This document shows, one piece after another, positions 19,892-54,774 of a stretch of 56,757 nt of DNA. Made by a program: the position numbers and the translations under genes. This stretch comes from Rickettsiales bacterium (lineage in GTDB: Bacteria; Pseudomonadota; Alphaproteobacteria; Micavibrionales; GCA-2720935), in contig PBIV01000056.1 of NCBI GenBank assembly GCA_002720935.1, positions 1 through 56,757 on the forward strand. The letters are read 5' to 3'. Below the pieces are notes generated by a model that saw only the letters and a program-made list of their open reading frames with translations, was not told the origin of the DNA and ran no database searches. How positions within the stretch are numbered: the stretch's first letter is position 1; every line of letters begins with the position of its first letter.

Positions 19892-20350
19892 TTAGGTAAT
19901 TCCGTCTTCGTTTACTTCTGGTGTTCTTCGATATGCTCTATTAGCGTGCTCTTCGCAAAAGCTTCCTCTATGGATTTTTTTAGAGCAGAATAAAAAAGGA
20001 CCTTCTGCGACTGGCCACCTACATTCATTATTTCGAACATCTATCAAAGACTTTGCACCAGGTGGTATTACCGCGCATTTTTTAGGGCTTTTTTCTTGTA
20101 CCGGCTTTTTTATTTCTTGGATATCAGCCTTGTTTTTCTTGATCCTGATCGTGTTTGGACTTGCCCTTTGAGCGGTGGCATTATCTACCTTTACTTTGCA
20201 TCGGCGCTTTCTTTTCTTAAGCCCCATTCTTCTCGCTTTACCAATAATGGCATTCTTACTTACACCAAGCTTATTGCCGATGATTTCGGCCGTAACATCT
20301 TTGACCCAAAGTTCTTTTAATTTTTTTACTCTTTCATCTGTCCAAGACAT
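19892..20350 (-). CDS. gcrA: GcrA-family cell-cycle regulator homolog (phage-encoded)
   Basis: MSWTDERVKKLKELW...IGNKLGVSKNAIIGKARRMGL at the N-terminus and CRWPVAEGPFLFC...FCEEHANRAY at the C-terminus. These are the GcrA hallmarks. Confidence 0.8.
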   Translation of the reverse strand: MSWTDERVKKLKELWVKDVTAEIIGNKLGVSKNAIIGKARRMGLKKRKRRCKVKVDNATAQRASPNTIRIKKNKADIQEIKKPVQEKSPKKCAVIPPGAKSLIDVRNNECRWPVAEGPFLFCSKKIHRGSFCEEHANRAYRRTPEVNEDGIT

Positions 20351-20569: not shown

Positions 20570-20645
20570 TGGTTGCGGGGGCAGGGTTCGAACCTGCGAC
20601 CTCTTGCGTATGAGACAAGCGAGCTGACCACTGCTCTACCCCGCA
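20570..20645 (-). tRNA. Phage-encoded tRNA with CAT anticodon (Met, or Ile2 if lysidine-modified)
   Basis: The minus strand reads TGCGGGG-TA-GAGC...GCTC-G-CTTGT-CTCATAC-GCAAG-AGGTC-GCAGG-TTCGAAC-CCTGC-CCCCGCA-A-CCA. The U1-A72 pair argues against an initiator. Confidence 0.85.
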
Positions 20646-23454: not shown

Positions 23455-24249
23455 ATGCTTACAAAAATCATGAGTTTTCTAGAAACAATAGGAAGAGAAT
23501 CACAGGAACCAATACCCGATTTACCAAGCGGAAAAAAAGTTATTATACCCGACTGGGAGTTTGAAGAATTTGATGTTATTGAACTTAATGAGGAGTTTGA
23601 AAGTGATATTTCTTTTGAAGATTTCTATGACGATGTTTTCTCAGAACAAGAAATAATAACATTTGGACAAACGACCTATATTGAATATCTAGATTCAAAA
23701 AAGAATTTATCTTCAAGAAGGGTGTCTATTAAAAAAGTTGAAACGAATGATAAGGGGATCAAACATTTAAAGTGTTATTGTCATGAGCGTAAAGCTTTTA
23801 GATCTTTTCGAGCCGACAGAGTACAATCTATATGCGATATAGGGACAGGGGAAATTATAGAAGACAAAGAAAGAATACAAAAATCTTTAGAACATATTGA
23901 GTTCTTTTGCTCTCAATTTTCTGTTTCGGATACCTTTAGAAAAGAATACCCAGCCATTAATATTTTATGTTTTCTAGCAAAATGCGATGGCAACGTTCAT
24001 GCGAGTGAGATTGCTGTATTAAAAAAATACCTCAATCAAGTCGATGAAGACCTATCAGAAGATGAAAACAATCTAATTGAATCACTTGCAAAATACTATT
24101 ACCCAGACAAACACCTATATATAAAGAGCTTAAAGAAATTAGAAAAGCATACGGCCAAGTTGAATACTATCGCAATCATGGCTAAAGAATTAATTGAAGC
24201 GGATGGGGTCACTCATGATAAAGAGAAAGAATTTTTAAGTCTATTTTAA
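23455..24249 (+). CDS. WYL-domain / TerB-domain fusion protein
   Basis: TYIEYLDSKKNLSSRRVSIKKVETNDKGIKHLKCYCHERKAFRSFRADRVQSI fits the WYL pattern (Y..d..g..s.R.v.P......yl.ayC..r...R.FR.DRI). The C-terminal LAKCDGNVHASEIAVLKKYL and LIEADGVTHDKEKEFL are TerB-type repeats. Confidence 0.6.
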   Translation: MLTKIMSFLETIGRESQEPIPDLPSGKKVIIPDWEFEEFDVIELNEEFESDISFEDFYDDVFSEQEIITFGQTTYIEYLDSKKNLSSRRVSIKKVETNDKGIKHLKCYCHERKAFRSFRADRVQSICDIGTGEIIEDKERIQKSLEHIEFFCSQFSVSDTFRKEYPAINILCFLAKCDGNVHASEIAVLKKYLNQVDEDLSEDENNLIESLAKYYYPDKHLYIKSLKKLEKHTAKLNTIAIMAKELIEADGVTHDKEKEFLSLF

Positions 24250-24962
24250 GCGGCTTTATTTTTATTTTTTGAGAAATCAATTCTTAAAAAATTACGCTCA
24301 AAAAGGTCGCCATGTGTTTCGTCTTTTTGCATGATTTCGAAACATTTCAAAATAGATCCTGGATAAACATCCAAACCCTTCTGCAATCTATTCATAAGAA
24401 TGAAGGCGGCCCCCTCTTCTAATAGATATTTTTTTGAAGATTTATAGAAGAATGGATAGCGATCTTTTGTATAAATGTCAGGCATTGATTCACTGCGCCT
24501 GATCCAGAAGCTTGTAATATTATCTTCTAGCCCTTTACAAAACTCGTCATTAATACGATAAACATAATCTAACTCAGAATAAATATCTGCATAATCAGGA
24601 TGGTTTATCCAGTAATCCCATCGAACAACGTTAATCTTGCTGTCTTTTAGAATATCGCCATTTCTTTTAAGCCAATCATCGCCCATCTTAATTGATTTTT
24701 TTAGGGCATCATTTATCGACAATCTCTCAGAGAACGCAATAGAACTTGCTTGCAGAGTATCATTTAAACAAATGGTTATTTTATCAAAGCGACATAATGC
24801 CCATTCAATGCAGGCCTTAAGTTTATCGCCTTCATGGTATTCTTGCCCAACGCTTATTTGCAATCGCACATGATCAAACTCTTGCCAGTTTTCTCCATGC
24901 TTAGGCTTAACCTTGTAATACCCCGTTTGTGGTGGGTATTGATTACTCTTAGAACCTCTCAT
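24246..24962 (-). CDS. Cyclodipeptide synthase-like protein (tRNA-dependent CDPS, XYP-type signature). Start trimmed to ATG at 24962.
   Basis: By-eye alignment to AlbC/YvmC: HVRLQIS37VGQ vs ALIGIS37AGN; EWALCRFDKITICLND vs QWAGQRFERTDVVYVD; HPDYADIY..NDEF..LED vs TPEYRAVR..DAEF..CED; Y179LLEE vs Y178VLAE; Y200-P201 vs Y202-H203. Confidence 0.6.
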   Translation of the reverse strand: MRGSKSNQYPPQTGYYKVKPKHGENWQEFDHVRLQISVGQEYHEGDKLKACIEWALCRFDKITICLNDTLQASSIAFSERLSINDALKKSIKMGDDWLKRNGDILKDSKINVVRWDYWINHPDYADIYSELDYVYRINDEFCKGLEDNITSFWIRRSESMPDIYTKDRYPFFYKSSKKYLLEEGAAFILMNRLQKGLDVYPGSILKCFEIMQKDETHGDLFERNFLRIDFSKNKNKAA

Positions 24963-25590
24963 CAGCAACACTCTCTGTTGGTTTCTCGCCATGCGACCAA
25001 ACAATTTCAAATAGATTTCTTTGAGCTTCAGCAGTTTCAAAATCTTTAAAAATAGTGATCTTCTTTTCAGCACCGCGGGCAATGACTGCATATTTATCGC
25101 CATAGATAAGAGACACGCGGTTTACAAAATATTGTTTAGAGATGTAGCGGTATTCGTCTAAATCTCCCATTAAATAAGTATTTCCCTCTTCAACAAGCTG
25201 TCTCATACCAATGCCTGCCGAGCGAATACGTCTATATAAATTAATTACATCTTGCGGAGATTTGCTGTCATCAGCATTTAAAATAAGCAACTCTTCGTCG
25301 GCCTCGTCTTTTAAATAGCTATACACATCTTCTAAAAGTTTAATAAAACTATTCTCGCCTTCAATGACCGTTACACTATCATCGACTTCTTCAACACCAT
25401 TGGCTGTAATCTTAATATGATGCCTATGGAAAGCAGACAATATCTTGTTAACAGTCTCTAATGTCGGGATCTTATCGCCAGTTTCAAAAGTTTTAATCGT
25501 TACAGCAGGCACACCAGATTCATCAGATAGATCATCTCTTGACCATCCTAATATCGCTCTTGCACCCCTTATGTACTTTCTATCAATCAT
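24949..25590 (-). CDS. XRE-family HTH regulator with an unknown C-terminal domain, translationally coupled to the CDPS-like gene
   Basis: N-terminus IRGARAILGWSRDDLSDESGVPAVTIKTFETGD. 14-nt overlap with the downstream CDPS-like ORF. Confidence 0.6.
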   Translation of the reverse strand: MIDRKYIRGARAILGWSRDDLSDESGVPAVTIKTFETGDKIPTLETVNKILSAFHRHHIKITANGVEEVDDSVTVIEGENSFIKLLEDVYSYLKDEADEELLILNADDSKSPQDVINLYRRIRSAGIGMRQLVEEGNTYLMGDLDEYRYISKQYFVNRVSLIYGDKYAVIARGAEKKITIFKDFETAEAQRNLFEIVWSHGEKPTESVADERF

Positions 25591-25654
25591 TTCTTAACTC
25601 GGTCTAGGTTTTTTATAAAGCATTACTTTATATTTTATAATGTATTATAATTTA

Positions 25655-25730
25655 TATACTAAAGTATCTAAAAAAATATTGCAAGAATTATTTAATTTAC
25701 ATAATATAATAAAAAAGATACTAAAGTATC
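25655..25730. promoter_or_regulatory. Two copies of a 14-bp palindrome (operators) in the divergent promoter region
   Basis: tATACTAAAGTATc at 25655-68 and GATACTAAAGTATC at 25717-30. A possible TTGCAA-17-TAATAT promoter (25679-25707) faces gene 25755. Confidence 0.55.
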
Positions 25731-25754
25731 GAAAAACAACAGGAGGTAAAAACA

Positions 25755-26024
25755 ATGCGGTTAAACAATAAAGGACAATATGAAGTTTCAATATTTGACG
25801 TGAAAAACAAAAACGATCTTGCAGCTGAGCTTAGAAACGTGGTTCGCGCAAAAATTAAGAAATACAGATCACACCAAGAGAATAACAGCTACGCCGATAG
25901 TAACCCACAGGACATTATTCTATATAGAGAGATCATGGTCGCCTATCAGACTTATAAAGAGGCCTATAGCAAGAGCGGTGGCTATATGATGTTCTACTTC
26001 TTAAATGAAGGTTTAAAACGATAA
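25755..26024 (+). CDS. Hypothetical phage protein (89 aa)
   Basis: Strong RBS AGGAGG 7 nt upstream. No family recognised. Confidence 0.5.
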   Translation: MRLNNKGQYEVSIFDVKNKNDLAAELRNVVRAKIKKYRSHQENNSYADSNPQDIILYREIMVAYQTYKEAYSKSGGYMMFYFLNEGLKR

Positions 26025-26048
26025 TTATATAAGTGGGGGATTATAATA

Positions 26049-26300
26049 ATGAAAATTGAAAACTTAGAACAATTAGAAACAGCAATAAAACAGCTCAACA
26101 AATTTTATGAAATGTTAAAAGAAGCCCTGTTAAATTACACCATATGGAGTGCGTCCAAATCAAAAGATGTGTGCTTAACTTATGAATTACAATTTTACCA
26201 AAGCCAAATCGCACTATTGAAAAAGATTTATATTAGAATTCTGGATGAAATATATATGCTTTCTCTACCGCAAGAAAAGGAGGTCTTGAGAGTTGTTTAA
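26049..26300 (+). CDS. Hypothetical phage protein (83 aa), predicted helical
   Basis: RBS GGGGGA upstream. The 3' end overlaps the cI stop region. Confidence 0.45.
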   Translation: MKIENLEQLETAIKQLNKFYEMLKEALLNYTIWSASKSKDVCLTYELQFYQSQIALLKKIYIRILDEIYMLSLPQEKEVLRVV

Positions 26301-26956
26301 GCCCTAGCAACGATCGCACAGACCTTATCGACATCTTTTAAAGCGATTGTGTCCGTCTTTTCTGGGGAATATTGTTTATATAAATAGTAGTCCCCTTTTA
26401 AGGTCTCAAATTCTCTTACAAGGGCCTGACCATTTTTTAAGAAGAAAACGCATTCCTGCCCTCTCTCAGGAATCTTTTTCAAATCAACAAAAACTTTATC
26501 TCTAAATCTTAGCCTTGGTGCTAAGGCATCCGTCATAACAGGAATTTGAATACAATTCTCATTTATCGGGCTGACTGTCTTCTTTTCGGTCTCATAAAGA
26601 TTACCATCAAGCATGCTTTCACTATCTTCAATATCATAAACAGGTAGCTTTAACCCCTTATAATCTTGCGATGGGACGGCCACAACCACATCCTTAGCCT
26701 TAAATTCAGTTTCAAAACCATCAACATCGCCAAGAGCTAAAAGCTCTTCTTGTGATATTGGGGGCCTGCCCTTTCCAACGAGATATGGAATAATTGTTTT
26801 CAAAAACTTTAATGGAATCGGCCTATCGGAATACTGTGTCTCATATCTTTGATAGCTAGAGTGATTTGCATATCCAAGAACCTTGGCAATATCACGCATA
26901 GTGTAGCCCGCTCTAATACGCAAATTCTTTAACTCTTCTGAATAGTTTTCTTTCAT
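26297..26956 (-). CDS. cI: Prophage cI-type repressor (XRE HTH plus S24-like domain lacking catalytic Ser and Lys)
   Basis: HTH YTMRDIAKVLGYANHSSYQRYE. The C-terminal TDALAPRLRFRDKVFV...ALVREF aligns with GDSMxP...tvKRl, with Ser replaced by Ala and Lys by Arg. Divergent from the cro-like gene. Confidence 0.7.
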   Translation of the reverse strand: MKENYSEELKNLRIRAGYTMRDIAKVLGYANHSSYQRYETQYSDRPIPLKFLKTIIPYLVGKGRPPISQEELLALGDVDGFETEFKAKDVVVAVPSQDYKGLKLPVYDIEDSESMLDGNLYETEKKTVSPINENCIQIPVMTDALAPRLRFRDKVFVDLKKIPERGQECVFFLKNGQALVREFETLKGDYYLYKQYSPEKTDTIALKDVDKVCAIVARA

Positions 26957-26979
26957 TGCAAAATAATACCAAATTAAAA

Positions 26980-27032
26980 TTATGTTTTTTGTATGTTTTT
27001 TATATTGATTGTGTATGTTTTTAGTGTAATAT
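26980..27032. promoter_or_regulatory. cI/cro operator-promoter region (3 x TATGTTTTT repeats plus AGTGTAATAT)
   Basis: TATGTTTTT at 26981, 26992 and 27014. TAATAT (27026-31) lies only 8 nt before the cro-like ATG, so the mRNA may be leaderless. Confidence 0.55.
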
Positions 27033-27039
27033 TTACTCC

Positions 27040-27249
27040 ATGAACATTGTCGATACGATTATTGAGAAATTTGGCGGGATCAGACCAGCCGCCCGTAAAT
27101 TAGAAGAAGCCCCTGCAAATATTCAAGGGTGGTTAAAACGGGGGGTCATACCTGCCAAAAAACAACAAAAAGTTTTAGACACAGCCAAACAAAATGGCAT
27201 CGATCTAAAGCCTGCTGATTTTTTCTCAACCCCTGTTCGACATTCTTAA
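27040..27249 (+). CDS. cro: Cro/YdaS-like small DNA-binding protein
   Basis: FGGIRPAARKLEEAPANIQGWLKRGVIPAKK is the YdaS/Cro-like pattern. The position opposite cI fits. Confidence 0.6.
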   Translation: MNIVDTIIEKFGGIRPAARKLEEAPANIQGWLKRGVIPAKKQQKVLDTAKQNGIDLKPADFFSTPVRHS

Positions 27250-27275
27250 TATATCAAGGCTTAAGGGGCTAAAAC

Positions 27276-27719
27276 ATGGAAAACATTAACGATTTTGCGC
27301 ATGATACTGCGAAAAGAAAGTTTTGTACTTTATTACAGTTGTTTATTGGTCGGGGTCGAAAATATTCCGTCTCTATCATTGCTGAAGCAACGGGCATTTC
27401 AGACAGAACAATTCAAAGTTATGTAAGTGGGGAAAATGCCCCTACTTTGATGAACGCTCTTCGCTTAATGGAATTTCTGCCAACGGTCTTTACAAATGGT
27501 GTTCTCGAACTTGCAGGATATACAGGCGCTAAGAAAATTGATGTAGAGGCCGAAAACCCACATATCGTACTTTGTTCTATTTTAGAACAGGCAAGCTCAA
27601 TTTCAAAAGCCTTACAAGATGGTCATATTGACCACCAAGAAAAGGCTAAGCTCTTACAAGAACTCCCTCAAATTATAGCCATGCTACAGGGCTTTCATAG
27701 TGGATTGAAGGCGAGCTGA
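27276..27719 (+). CDS. HTH-containing early regulator (cII-position gene)
   Basis: SIIAEATGISDRTIQSYVSGENAPT is an HTH. Confidence 0.45.
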   Translation: MENINDFAHDTAKRKFCTLLQLFIGRGRKYSVSIIAEATGISDRTIQSYVSGENAPTLMNALRLMEFLPTVFTNGVLELAGYTGAKKIDVEAENPHIVLCSILEQASSISKALQDGHIDHQEKAKLLQELPQIIAMLQGFHSGLKAS

Positions 27720-29304: not shown

Positions 29305-29826
29305 TTAAACCAAATCATCGAGATCAACGTCAAGCGCCACCGCTATGGCTTTCAAAGTCTCTGGCGATCCAGTTCTGCGTCCACTCTCAATATCAGAGAT
29401 ATAGTTTTGAGAAAGGTCAGTTGCCTTCGCCAAGTCAATTTGGGTCATACTGCGATACTTTCTGTAAACTTTAACGGGATTATCGCCATTAAGAATATCA
29501 TTCAAGACGCTTTCTGGAAAAGTTTCCTCGCCACTATCAACGGCGGCTTTAAGCTCAAGGGCATCTTCCAAGTCTCGTACTCTTTGCTTAAGGCTCTCAT
29601 TCTCAACCAAAACTTTTTCTATAAAGTCTTTGCTTTGACGACCAAGGCTAGTACCAAAAGCCGCTTTAGGCTTTCTCGAGGAAGAAACTGTATCTGCTTT
29701 GTTCTTAACGACTTGGCGATTACCTCTAATAGCATGGCTTCCAGCTTTAGCAATAGGAGCATGCGGCTCAGAACTGGAAATAAATTTTCCAGATTTATTT
29801 TTATTGTTTTTTCTATCTTTAGTCAT
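29305..29826 (-). CDS. HigA/XRE-type antitoxin with a long basic N-terminal extension
   Basis: C-terminal HTH MTQIDLAKATDLSQNYISDIESGRR. Located directly downstream of the RelE-like toxin gene (1-nt overlap). Confidence 0.6.
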   Translation of the reverse strand: MTKDRKNNKNKSGKFISSSEPHAPIAKAGSHAIRGNRQVVKNKADTVSSSRKPKAAFGTSLGRQSKDFIEKVLVENESLKQRVRDLEDALELKAAVDSGEETFPESVLNDILNGDNPVKVYRKYRSMTQIDLAKATDLSQNYISDIESGRRTGSPETLKAIAVALDVDLDDLV

Positions 29827-30083
29827 TATTCATACACATCCTTTCTATGTCCTACTCTATACACTTCGATGATCTGCTCATCTTTTAAAACGATGTATAA
29901 AGCTCTATGTGGCTTTACTGATAATCTATATCCGTTCTGCACACCTGTAAGTGGCTTTAAGTTATTGTTCTTCGCAAAAGGGTCTTTTGCCACTTCTTTT
30001 AATTTATCAACGATCTTTGTAGAAACGGGCTTGCCCAATTTCTTTAGTTCCTTGATTGCTTTCTTTGTAAATCTCAATTCCAT
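29826..30083 (-). CDS. RelE/ParE-superfamily toxin (toxin-first, HigB-like order)
   Basis: MELRFTKKAIKELKKL...KPLTGVQNGYRLSVKPHRALYIVLKDEQIIEVYRVGHRKDVY is the classic RelE/ParE pattern. Confidence 0.7.
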   Translation of the reverse strand: MELRFTKKAIKELKKLGKPVSTKIVDKLKEVAKDPFAKNNNLKPLTGVQNGYRLSVKPHRALYIVLKDEQIIEVYRVGHRKDVYE

Positions 30084-30100
30084 GATTCTAGTATCGCACA

Positions 30101-30141
30101 TAGCGATATTAATGTCAATAATAAAAATCGCAATTAGCGAT
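30101..30141. promoter_or_regulatory. Candidate TA operator (AGCGATATT direct repeat and ATCGCaattaGCGAT palindrome)
   Basis: TAGCGATATT at 30101-10 and 30135-44. Palindrome at 30127-41. Located in the divergent region between the TA pair and rep. Confidence 0.4.
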
Positions 30142-54704: not shown

Positions 54705-54774
54705 GCTACGTTGACATCGTAGAGGTCACAAGTTCGAATCTTGTTATGCCCACCATTTAAATCAATGACTTAGC
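54705..54774 (+). repeat. attR core (70-bp direct repeat, pseudo-3' part of tRNA-Val)
   Basis: Identical by eye to 16036..16105. Confidence 0.9.

Follow-up and report, generated by a model that had tools for sequence, protein, structure and literature searches.

Receptor–signal systems such as AimR-AimP, Rap-Phr and VqmA of phage VP882 are known from temperate phages, which carry cassettes of this kind beside the lysis-lysogeny switch. In the Rap-Phr and AimR-AimP cassettes the receptor gene comes first and the signal gene overlaps it. VqmA senses the pyrazinone DPO, which is chemically close to a diketopiperazine. The receptors of these systems are TPR or PAS proteins and the signals are ribosomal peptides or host-made DPO. 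Genes for tRNA-dependent cyclodipeptide synthases (CDPSs), according to a review of the family (PMC4159871), nearly always lie near at least one tailoring enzyme gene in bacteria, together with regulators of the LuxR or MarR type. In the pulcherrimin locus of Bacillus, PchR-YvmC/CypX, the CDPS has its own transcription factor encoded beside it, of the MarR type and in divergent orientation; a tailoring P450 is present and the product is an iron chelator. Here we describe a gene pair from the window, by which we mean the whole 56,757-bp contig PBIV01000056.1 from a marine (Tara) metagenome-assembled genome (MAG) labelled 'Rickettsiales bacterium'. In this pair, carried by a prophage, a CDPS gene overlaps the gene for an XRE-type helix-turn-helix (HTH) regulator with a C-terminal phospholipase D (PLD)-like domain. 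These two genes and the convergent neighbour of the CDPS gene, which encodes a protein with WYL and TerB domains, were deposited as hypothetical proteins (MBK67993-5). The pair recurs wherever we could examine its relatives, and we tentatively propose that it may act as a synthase with its own sensor-regulator. It differs from the RRNPP/arbitrium type, which has a TPR receptor and a secreted ribosomal propeptide: the regulator combines HTH_3 with a PLD-like domain, the downstream gene encodes an enzyme, and the signal would be made by that enzyme from aminoacyl-tRNAs.

The downstream gene encodes a genuine XYP-subfamily CDPS with an intact active site. Its product passed the NCBIfam model TIGR04539, 'tRNA-dependent cyclodipeptide synthase' (45.7 bits, cut-off 45), and fell below the cut-off of Pfam PF16715 (22.9 versus 27 bits), which is present in 10 of 16 CDPS homologues. 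A phmmer search against PDB sequences retrieved Nbra-CDPS (5MLQ/9I5M, E=1.4e-20), Fdum-CDPS (5OCD, 1.1e-18) and Rgry-CDPS (5MLP, 6e-5), and a profile made from 19 members of the clade matched 21 different CDPSs in the PDB, with a best E of 1.7e-46 and with AlbC at 1.1e-4. The AlphaFold2 (AF2) model (pLDDT 88.6) has the class-Ic aminoacyl-tRNA synthetase-like Rossmann fold; the top 47 Foldseek matches were all CDPSs, with TM scores of 0.79-0.83 to Nbra and Fdum, and tyrosyl-tRNA synthetase came next. Residues S37, Y179 and E183 align with S34, Y172 and E176 of Nbra, which the depositors equate with S37, Y178 and E182 of AlbC (PMC13062777), and Y200-P201 aligns with the Tyr-Pro of Fdum, so that the full catalytic set S37, Y179, E183 and Y200 (AlbC Ser37, Tyr178, Glu182 and Tyr202) is present. 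Across 27 independent loci S37, Y179, E182-E183 and Y200-P201-G202 do not vary, and position 40 is variable (Q, K, N, M, H or G), which is the XYP signature; the best matches, Nbra, Fdum, Rgry and the BcmA-type 9J61, are all XYP enzymes. The invariance of the catalytic residues over such divergent loci argues for selection on catalysis. Judged by these residues, the window enzyme looks active and may make a cyclodipeptide. An earlier sequence-only reading of the window had aligned this gene by eye with CDPSs, and most of what it said of the enzyme stood: its open reading frames (ORFs) were all present at the coordinates given, and the CDPS identity, the class-I synthetase-like fold, the placing of Ser37, Tyr179, Glu183 and Y200-P201 and the choice of XYP over NYH were each confirmed. 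The profile search that it had proposed succeeded with TIGR04539 and with the PDB and clade-profile matches, and stayed below threshold with PF16715.

Nbra- and Fdum-CDPS share with the window enzyme, beyond the fold and the catalytic residues, the motifs ISVGQxxHE, DTLQR, GDxWLxRN and RWDxW, as well as basic residues in strands beta2 (YKVKPKH in the window) and beta7 (RIDFSKNKNK), at an overall identity of only ~25%. What distinguishes the window enzyme from them is that it is prophage-borne and strictly coupled to the XRE/PLD-like regulator. In the neighbourhoods of CDPS homologues, an HTH_3 gene of ~213-218 aa lay directly upstream each time, in otherwise unrelated surroundings that comprised the window prophage, an island with HATPase and methylase genes, a shikimate-pathway neighbourhood and a type IV secretion system (T4SS) element. 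The search from the regulator side gave 64 full-length homologues, and in three of three chosen solely for their long contigs a CDPS gene overlapped the 3′ end. One genome per species (185,579 species) was also scanned with the regulator-specific peptide MRQ[LTI][VI][EQK]EGN; this gave 21 loci, of which all 20 with downstream DNA had a CDPS as the next gene on the same strand, the remaining one ending at a contig edge. The regulator thus lies directly upstream of the CDPS in 27/27 non-redundant loci. The junction itself is also conserved: in 20 of the 27 loci the two genes overlap by 14 nt, and in the others they overlap by 17, 20, 4 or 1 nt, or abut. The CDPS start codon arises from the GAT-GAR codons in the conserved ..ADERF tail of the regulator. 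Translational coupling is thus a trait that the family conserves. The 14-nt overlap had already been noted from the sequence, and its conservation fixes the start of the 238-aa CDPS in the window, with which the homologues agree. A Mantel test of co-phylogeny between regulator and CDPS (r=0.51, 0/2000 permutations) adds little, because adjacent genes share their history anyway.

No third gene accompanies the pair. BLAST clustering of all ORFs within 4-5 kb of the 27 loci gave no third family in over three loci once ORFs antisense to the pair were set aside; two clusters, in 15 and 10 loci, were rejected as partners because they consist of such shadow ORFs. Pfam annotation of 122 ORFs from the neighbourhoods brought up DnaA, Tad/T2SS proteins, solute-binding proteins, M16 peptidases and two T4SS coupling proteins, and among these 122 there was no P450, cyclodipeptide oxidase, exporter or recurrent partner. 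Nor does a tailoring enzyme lie near the CDPS gene of the window, as the sequence-only reading had observed. Since the pairing is strict and nothing else recurs, the conserved unit is a two-gene cassette of 1.35 kb, which, to judge from its unrelated surroundings, probably moves horizontally on its own. Nearly every host belongs to the uncultured Alphaproteobacteria (Micavibrio, Rhodospirillaceae); isolated copies turned up in one MAG of Pseudobdellovibrionaceae and one of Flavobacteriales. The CDPS review (PMC4159871) makes no mention of the XRE/PLD-like partner.

Some loci deserve separate mention. The window CDPS has its closest relative (61% identity) in locus L003, positions 46-2144, where one regulator gene is followed by a tandem pair of CDPS genes, the first of which encodes Phe in place of the catalytic Tyr179. 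The genes downstream of this cassette, for a HATPase_c protein of 715 aa, a 438-aa protein and a DNA methylase, could jointly be a defence island. In L010/L011 (6554-7819) a gene resembling a class-II aminoacyl-tRNA synthetase (tRNA-synt_2b plus HGTP_anticodon, 421 aa) stands two genes downstream of the pair; it belongs to one lineage and may simply be a housekeeping hisS.

The regulator has a single match to a known family, HTH_3 (PF01381; 30.2 bits, cut-off 23, residues 8-55). The nearest solved relatives of its HTH are the restriction-modification (R-M) controller C.Kpn2I (3.5e-10) and then the HigA and HipB antitoxins. The C-terminal ~140 residues matched no family in Pfam, NCBIfam or PDB sequences. 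This domain is the best-conserved part of the cassette, with a mean pairwise identity of 47%, where the HTH and the CDPS each reach 38%; it carries the motifs ADDxxSP, MRQLVEEGNTYLMG, EYRYIP and LIYGD, and polar or charged residues predominate among its invariant positions (D88, D108, S111, R123, R130, N137, E146, Y147, N157 and Y163). In the AF2 model of the regulator (pLDDT 91.7) the C-terminal domain takes up a PLD-like alpha/beta fold. Foldseek matched the model to TrmBL2 (5e-7), Nuc (2.5e-5), full-length TrmB (3QPH, 7.6e-5) and the sugar-binding domain of TrmB (2F5T, 3.4e-4), with Zucchini and NucT among the further matches. The HxK(x)4D (HKD) motif of PLD enzymes was looked for in 30 sequences, which contain no invariant His or Lys, and no Pfam PLD model matched; the motif is therefore gone and the domain is not an active PLD enzyme. 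From the model, and by analogy with the effector domain of TrmB, we suggest that it is a degenerate PLD-like domain of the sensor type.

A profile of this C-terminal domain retrieves 220 proteins, and nearly all of the best 120 of these 220 are HTH_3 proteins of ~213 aa, with no other architecture among those 120; an exhaustive profile search gave 281 clusters (50% identity) at E<=1e-30. One of the proteins, P0193 (441 aa), is the whole HTH plus PLD-like regulator tandemly duplicated in one polypeptide. A search for Rosetta-stone fusions of the regulator with the CDPS gave one double match, P0084 (256 aa), which was rejected as an internal-deletion chimera rather than a functional fusion: an in-frame deletion joins regulator residues 31-190 to CDPS residues 141-239 in what is likely a decayed copy. 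In a Micavibrio MAG (L029, 6340-6984) a second, divergent regulator-like gene, scoring 109 bits to the family profile, comes right after the CDPS.

Two groups of described regulators invite comparison. TrmB and TrmBL2 (3QPH, 2F5T, 5BPI) resemble this regulator in that a PLD-like domain without catalytic function comes after the DNA-binding domain; in TrmB this PLD-like domain belongs to the effector module that senses sugars. The window regulator differs in having an XRE HTH instead of a winged helix; it shows no sequence similarity to TrmB, no Pfam match in common and no second barrel subdomain. C proteins of the C.Kpn2I type (4YBA), the closest relatives of the HTH, are likewise encoded upstream of the gene that they control and overlapping it, and bind palindromic operators upstream of their own gene, as the candidate sites described below would allow. 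Unlike the window regulator, they are ~80-100 aa long and lack a sensor domain, and their downstream gene encodes a nuclease.

The substrate pocket of the enzyme is less easily placed. The P1 positions of the window CDPS are R33, Q35, C65, N67, W115, A186, F187 and D198 (motif RQCNWAFD). Where characterised groups have hydrophobic pockets, the regulator-paired clade has unusually polar P1 positions (R, Q/D/E/H, N/S/A, D). In the XYP groups whose products contain Glu, the residue two before the catalytic Ser is decisive according to PMC5816076 (Leu for cAE, Ala for cLE, Phe for cGE). Nbra-CDPS, which makes cyclo(Ala-Glu), has L32 there (PMC13062777), and the position is Leu or Pro in Nbra and Fdum, in contrast to Q, E, H or D in the clade. 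The product is therefore not predictable, and we dropped a prediction from the P1 and P2 motifs, RQCNWAFD matching no characterised specificity group.

One member of the clade has been assayed before. A provirus call from IMG/VR (L036) contains a CDPS beginning MNYKVKILGPNATHSHPVGRLDISVGQPYHEGEKLAATIQWA, which is the translated start of the synthetic gene for CDPS 35 of a 2018 study, except for an Ala codon added there for cloning; L036 therefore derives from Micavibrio aeruginosavorus ARL-13. CDPS 35 is identical to the L036 CDPS and belongs to the regulator-paired clade, with the XRE partner directly upstream in L036. In ARL-13, a strain that grows in culture when given prey, its gene is MICA_581. 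It is ~34% identical to the window CDPS and lacks the N-terminal QYPPQTG segment. The available part of the published record gives its motifs as RDSAWVFD (P1) and AQYRGIL (P2), lists it as inactive, with no cyclodipeptide detected in E. coli, and names as the only other clade member in the 2017 census an uncharacterised protein of Mesorhizobium australicum (P1 RQVSWVFD). It was assayed alone in E. coli, and that part of the record mentions neither the partner gene nor the prophage context.

Upstream of the operon in the window is a 164-bp gap (25591-25754) that holds the only two copies of the 13-mer GATACTTTAGTAT in 56.7 kb, 62 bp apart, at the two candidate operators of Table 1. These palindromes are plausible binding sites of the regulator, and the divergent small genes on the far side of the gap, which are not conserved with the pair in other loci, are possible local outputs. 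Based on these observations we favour, at a little short of even confidence, the interpretation that the cassette is a CDPS with a cognate sensor-regulator circuit. A temperate phage would have picked up the mobile two-gene unit. Its first gene would specify an XRE repressor or activator of the dimeric type whose PLD-like domain, catalytically dead, serves as a sensor as in TrmB-family regulators. Its second gene, translationally coupled, would specify an XYP enzyme that uses two aminoacyl-tRNAs to form a 2,5-diketopiperazine and sets it free unmodified. The regulator would bind both GATACT-TT-AGTATC operators, controlling its own operon and, in the window phage, probably also the divergent 89- and 83-aa genes that run into cI. 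The small, diffusible diketopiperazine would be the ligand of the C-terminal domain, so that the pair could work as signal synthase and cognate receptor, in feedback or in cell-to-cell (lysogen-to-lysogen) communication. Because nothing but the regulator is conserved with the CDPS, the regulator is the only conserved candidate user of the product. Because the candidate operators also face small genes converging on cI, the circuit could feed into the lysis-lysogeny switch. We infer both the binding of a cyclodipeptide by the C-terminal domain, by analogy, and any effect of the pair on the phage switch.

Several points weigh against this interpretation. Ligand binding by the C-terminal domain is argued from analogy of fold alone, and the domain could merely dimerise, or bind the enzyme or nucleic acid. 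Within the family, the domain and the enzyme pockets vary rather little, and so give no sign of the diversification of signal and receptor that is typical of many communication systems. Another phage repressor could use the two palindromes in the window, and the candidate palindromes upstream of the pair elsewhere are not alike. CDPS 35, the sole clade member ever assayed, gave no detectable product in E. coli. Finally, the cassette has chromosomal housekeeping genes on its flanks in most loci and lies on mobile elements in a minority only, so a role in phage decisions is not general.

The alternative that fares best, which we regard as somewhat doubtful, is that of an ordinary biosynthetic gene whose pathway-specific regulator senses an unrelated cue, or senses nothing and uses its C-terminal domain for dimerisation. 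The unmodified cyclodipeptide would then be an end product, for instance an antimicrobial, a compound active against phages or predators, a metal ligand or a host modulator, expressed from the prophage as a lysogenic-conversion trait. The intact active site suits this explanation as well, most copies sit in varied housekeeping contexts on chromosomes, and the PLD fold is a known dimerising fold, as in Nuc. Regulators adjoining CDPS genes are common, too, both as LuxR and MarR types in the review (PMC4159871) and in PchR-YvmC. It sits less well with the pair that no exporter, resistance or tailoring gene is conserved beside it, and that pairing in 27/27 loci with conserved coupling is tighter than is typical of pathway regulators. 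Moreover, the C-terminal domain has many invariant polar or charged residues and is conserved above both the HTH and the enzyme, which exceeds the usual need of a dimer interface.

The gene order and the short overlap, with the HTH gene first, recall toxin-antitoxin modules, as do the kinship of the HTH with an R-M controller and the HigA and HipB antitoxins and the spread of an autonomous two-gene unit over patchy mobile contexts (prophage, T4SS elements, the methylase/HATPase island). Toxins that act on aminoacyl-tRNA exist, in the TacT/AtaT class. The CDPS might, on this account, drain particular aminoacyl-tRNAs or make a toxic diketopiperazine, in toxin-antitoxin fashion or as an abortive-infection effector, while the XRE protein, as antitoxin or controller, would repress the operon and neutralise the enzyme through its C-terminal domain until its loss on phage attack set the enzyme free. 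We consider this quite unlikely. The supposed antitoxin is a well-folded domain of 140 aa that is more conserved than the toxin, the reverse of most type II systems, and tRNAs released by a CDPS are simply recharged. PADLOC gave no match for the CDPS, and its matches to the regulator cover the HTH only. In E. coli production hosts, over 100 CDPSs have been expressed at high level on their own, and the available text of that work (PMC5816076) notes no toxicity.

Very unlikely, in our view, is that the CDPS has become a pseudo-enzyme or turned to altered chemistry, acting in complex with the regulator as a sensor that binds (aminoacyl-)tRNA or making some other product. The reported inactivity of CDPS 35 in E. 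coli, the unusually polar P1 pocket and the retention of the basic beta2 and beta7 strands (PMC7566563) would fit such a role, and against it stands the invariance of Ser, Tyr, Glu and Tyr-Pro across the 27 divergent loci. The failure of CDPS 35 also has precedents of a trivial kind: in PMC5816076 the authors put the inactivity of XYP enzymes in E. coli down to unsuitable tRNAs or wrong start codons.

The sequence-only reading had placed the convergent WYL-TerB gene in the system. Both of its domains scored above the Pfam cut-offs (TerB 26.2 bits, cut-off 24.4; WYL 23.6 bits, cut-off 21.8), in accordance with that reading, and its stop codon does overlap that of the CDPS gene, the two sharing TTAA at 24246-24249, which leaves no room for a terminator. 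The protein has an acidic N-terminus of 70 aa, and its only matches are to PHROG 6785 (unknown function) and to PADLOC WYL models. The gene is a neighbouring moron and a bystander to the conserved module, and it appears unique to the lineage of the window phage. The coupling of CDPS and XRE gene that the reading had proposed is thus general, and its third member fell away; the reading had itself named a trio that recurs nowhere else as a reason to give it up, and no other of the 27 loci has it. That CDPS, XRE protein and WYL-TerB form a three-part system in which the WYL domain senses the diketopiperazine is scarcely credible, for all that the genes are adjacent with shared stops and WYL domains are ligand sensors in defence regulators (hence the PADLOC matches): WYL-TerB is absent from the 26 other independent loci, has no relatives in scans of INPHARED (50,697 phage genomes) or in pattern scans of IMG/VR, and shows no DNA-binding HTH in Pfam of the kind found in WYL-plus-winged-helix regulators, so that the PLD-like domain of the XRE protein is the better sensor candidate.

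The element that bears the CDPS gene is a myovirus-like prophage integrated at tRNA-Val. A perfect 70-nt direct repeat (attL and attR in Table 1) bounds ~38.7 kb, flanked by host chromosome (the dnaX side). PHROG matches inside include a large terminase, a portal, a head-protease/major head fusion, a tail sheath and a tape measure protein. Genes for SSB, a YfdP-like protein, DUF2303 and a GcrA-like protein make up an early-left region on the minus strand, and the XRE-CDPS block lies between this operon and cI/cro/cII. The sequence-only reading was right in seeing here a cargo slot beside the immunity region, as the att repeats, the integrase and the cI, cro and CII genes attest. The homologue of the cell-cycle regulator GcrA (19892-20350, minus strand) is consistent with an alphaproteobacterial host. 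The early-left region also contains a tRNA-Met(CAT) gene (20570-20645, minus strand), in the same phage that encodes an enzyme of an aminoacyl-tRNA-consuming type. A ParE-toxin gene (91 aa, 29826-30101, minus strand) followed by a 173-aa HTH_3 gene (29305-29826, minus strand) forms a second HTH-plus-effector pair in the prophage; it was called in the identical contigs L001 and L002 and overlaps a 302-aa ORF on the plus strand.

Table 1. Coordinates of the XRE-CDPS cassette, its putative regulatory DNA and the surrounding prophage features in the window.
Feature	Position	Strand	Description
Partner regulator, 213 aa	24949..25590	minus	XRE-type HTH (~residues 5-57) and conserved C-terminal domain (~residues 75-205)
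XYP-subfamily tRNA-dependent CDPS, 238 aa	24246..24962	minus	Profile, PDB-sequence and fold matches
Candidate operator 1	25717..25730		Perfect palindrome GATACT-TT-AGTATC
Candidate operator 2 (GATACTTTAGTATA)	25655..25668		Between -35 and -10 of the operon-facing promoter-like match
Sigma-70-like promoter match, XRE-CDPS operon	25644..25672	minus	TTTAGA, 17 nt, TATAAT; consensus match only
Divergent promoter-like match	25612-25641	plus	Consensus match only; faces the two orphan ORFs
Two orphan small ORFs (89 aa, 83 aa)	25755..26300	plus	Divergent from the shared candidate operator region; converge on cI
WYL + TerB protein, 264 aa	23455..24249	plus	Pfam matches; convergent with the CDPS gene
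attL	16036..16105		70-nt repeat over the 3′ half of tRNA-Val; adjoins the integrase
attR	54705..54774		70-nt repeat identical to attL
tRNA-Val(GAC)	16010-16086		3′ half inside the attL repeat
Tyrosine integrase	16160-17254	minus	
Immunity switch	26297..27719		Lambda-like, cI/cro/CII-type genes
cI-like HTH/S24 repressor	26297-26956	minus	
cro-like gene	27040-27249	plus	
CII-like gene	27276-27719	plus	

Carriage by phages is the exception. A tblastn search of the deposited phage genomes in INPHARED found no CDPS homologue, the window CDPS matched no PHROG family, and scans of IMG/VR gave one locus (L036) with CDPS patterns and none with regulator patterns. In L036 early-type phage genes (RusA, a DNA methylase and AAA_24) lie near the pair. 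The window prophage and this Micavibrio ARL-13 provirus are the only phage-borne copies that we found, and the window prophage has no phage genes in common with other pair loci. Most copies being chromosomal, the module is not the phage-specific invention that the sequence-only reading had taken it for. The window CDPS is the first enzyme of its family that we could assign to a bounded, integrated prophage. On plasmids the search returned only a distant CDPS without an XRE partner, on the p-ren plasmid of Ca. Endohaliclona. That homologue (L037, MK748464.1, 3950-4762; 32% identity, annotated as hypothetical) is on the renieramycin plasmid of the sponge symbiont Ca. Endohaliclona renieramycinifaciens, adjoining a sensor histidine kinase gene and a few kb downstream of RenA.

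A bolder form of the proposal, which we think doubtful, is that the pair is the first genetically defined diketopiperazine autoinducer synthase with its receptor. Lying beside cI/cro/cII in the window prophage and the ARL-13 provirus, it would be an enzyme-made, small-molecule counterpart of arbitrium, its cyclodipeptide reporting the density of lysogens or infected cells and adjusting the 89- and 83-aa genes that converge on cI. A search of full-text literature with partial coverage found nothing relevant that links CDPSs with XRE/HTH regulators, prophages or phage defence, and no described system of this composition, in line with what the sequence-only reading had stated. The CDPS family is known and the clade has been catalogued, as yet uncharacterised; that the enzyme is obligately partnered with a novel sensor-regulator and carried by prophages appears to be undescribed.

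If the function of the cassette is only the local regulation of a minor metabolite, the finding would be a modest addition to CDPS genomics. The clade, whose P1 pocket is unusually polar and for which no product is known, may extend CDPS chemistry. Diketopiperazines as bacterial signals, and the receptors for them, have been argued over for more than 20 years without a matched pair of synthase and receptor genes. The cassette provides a directly testable candidate for such a pair, with one enzyme, one regulator of the sensor type and ~280 sequence clusters for comparison.

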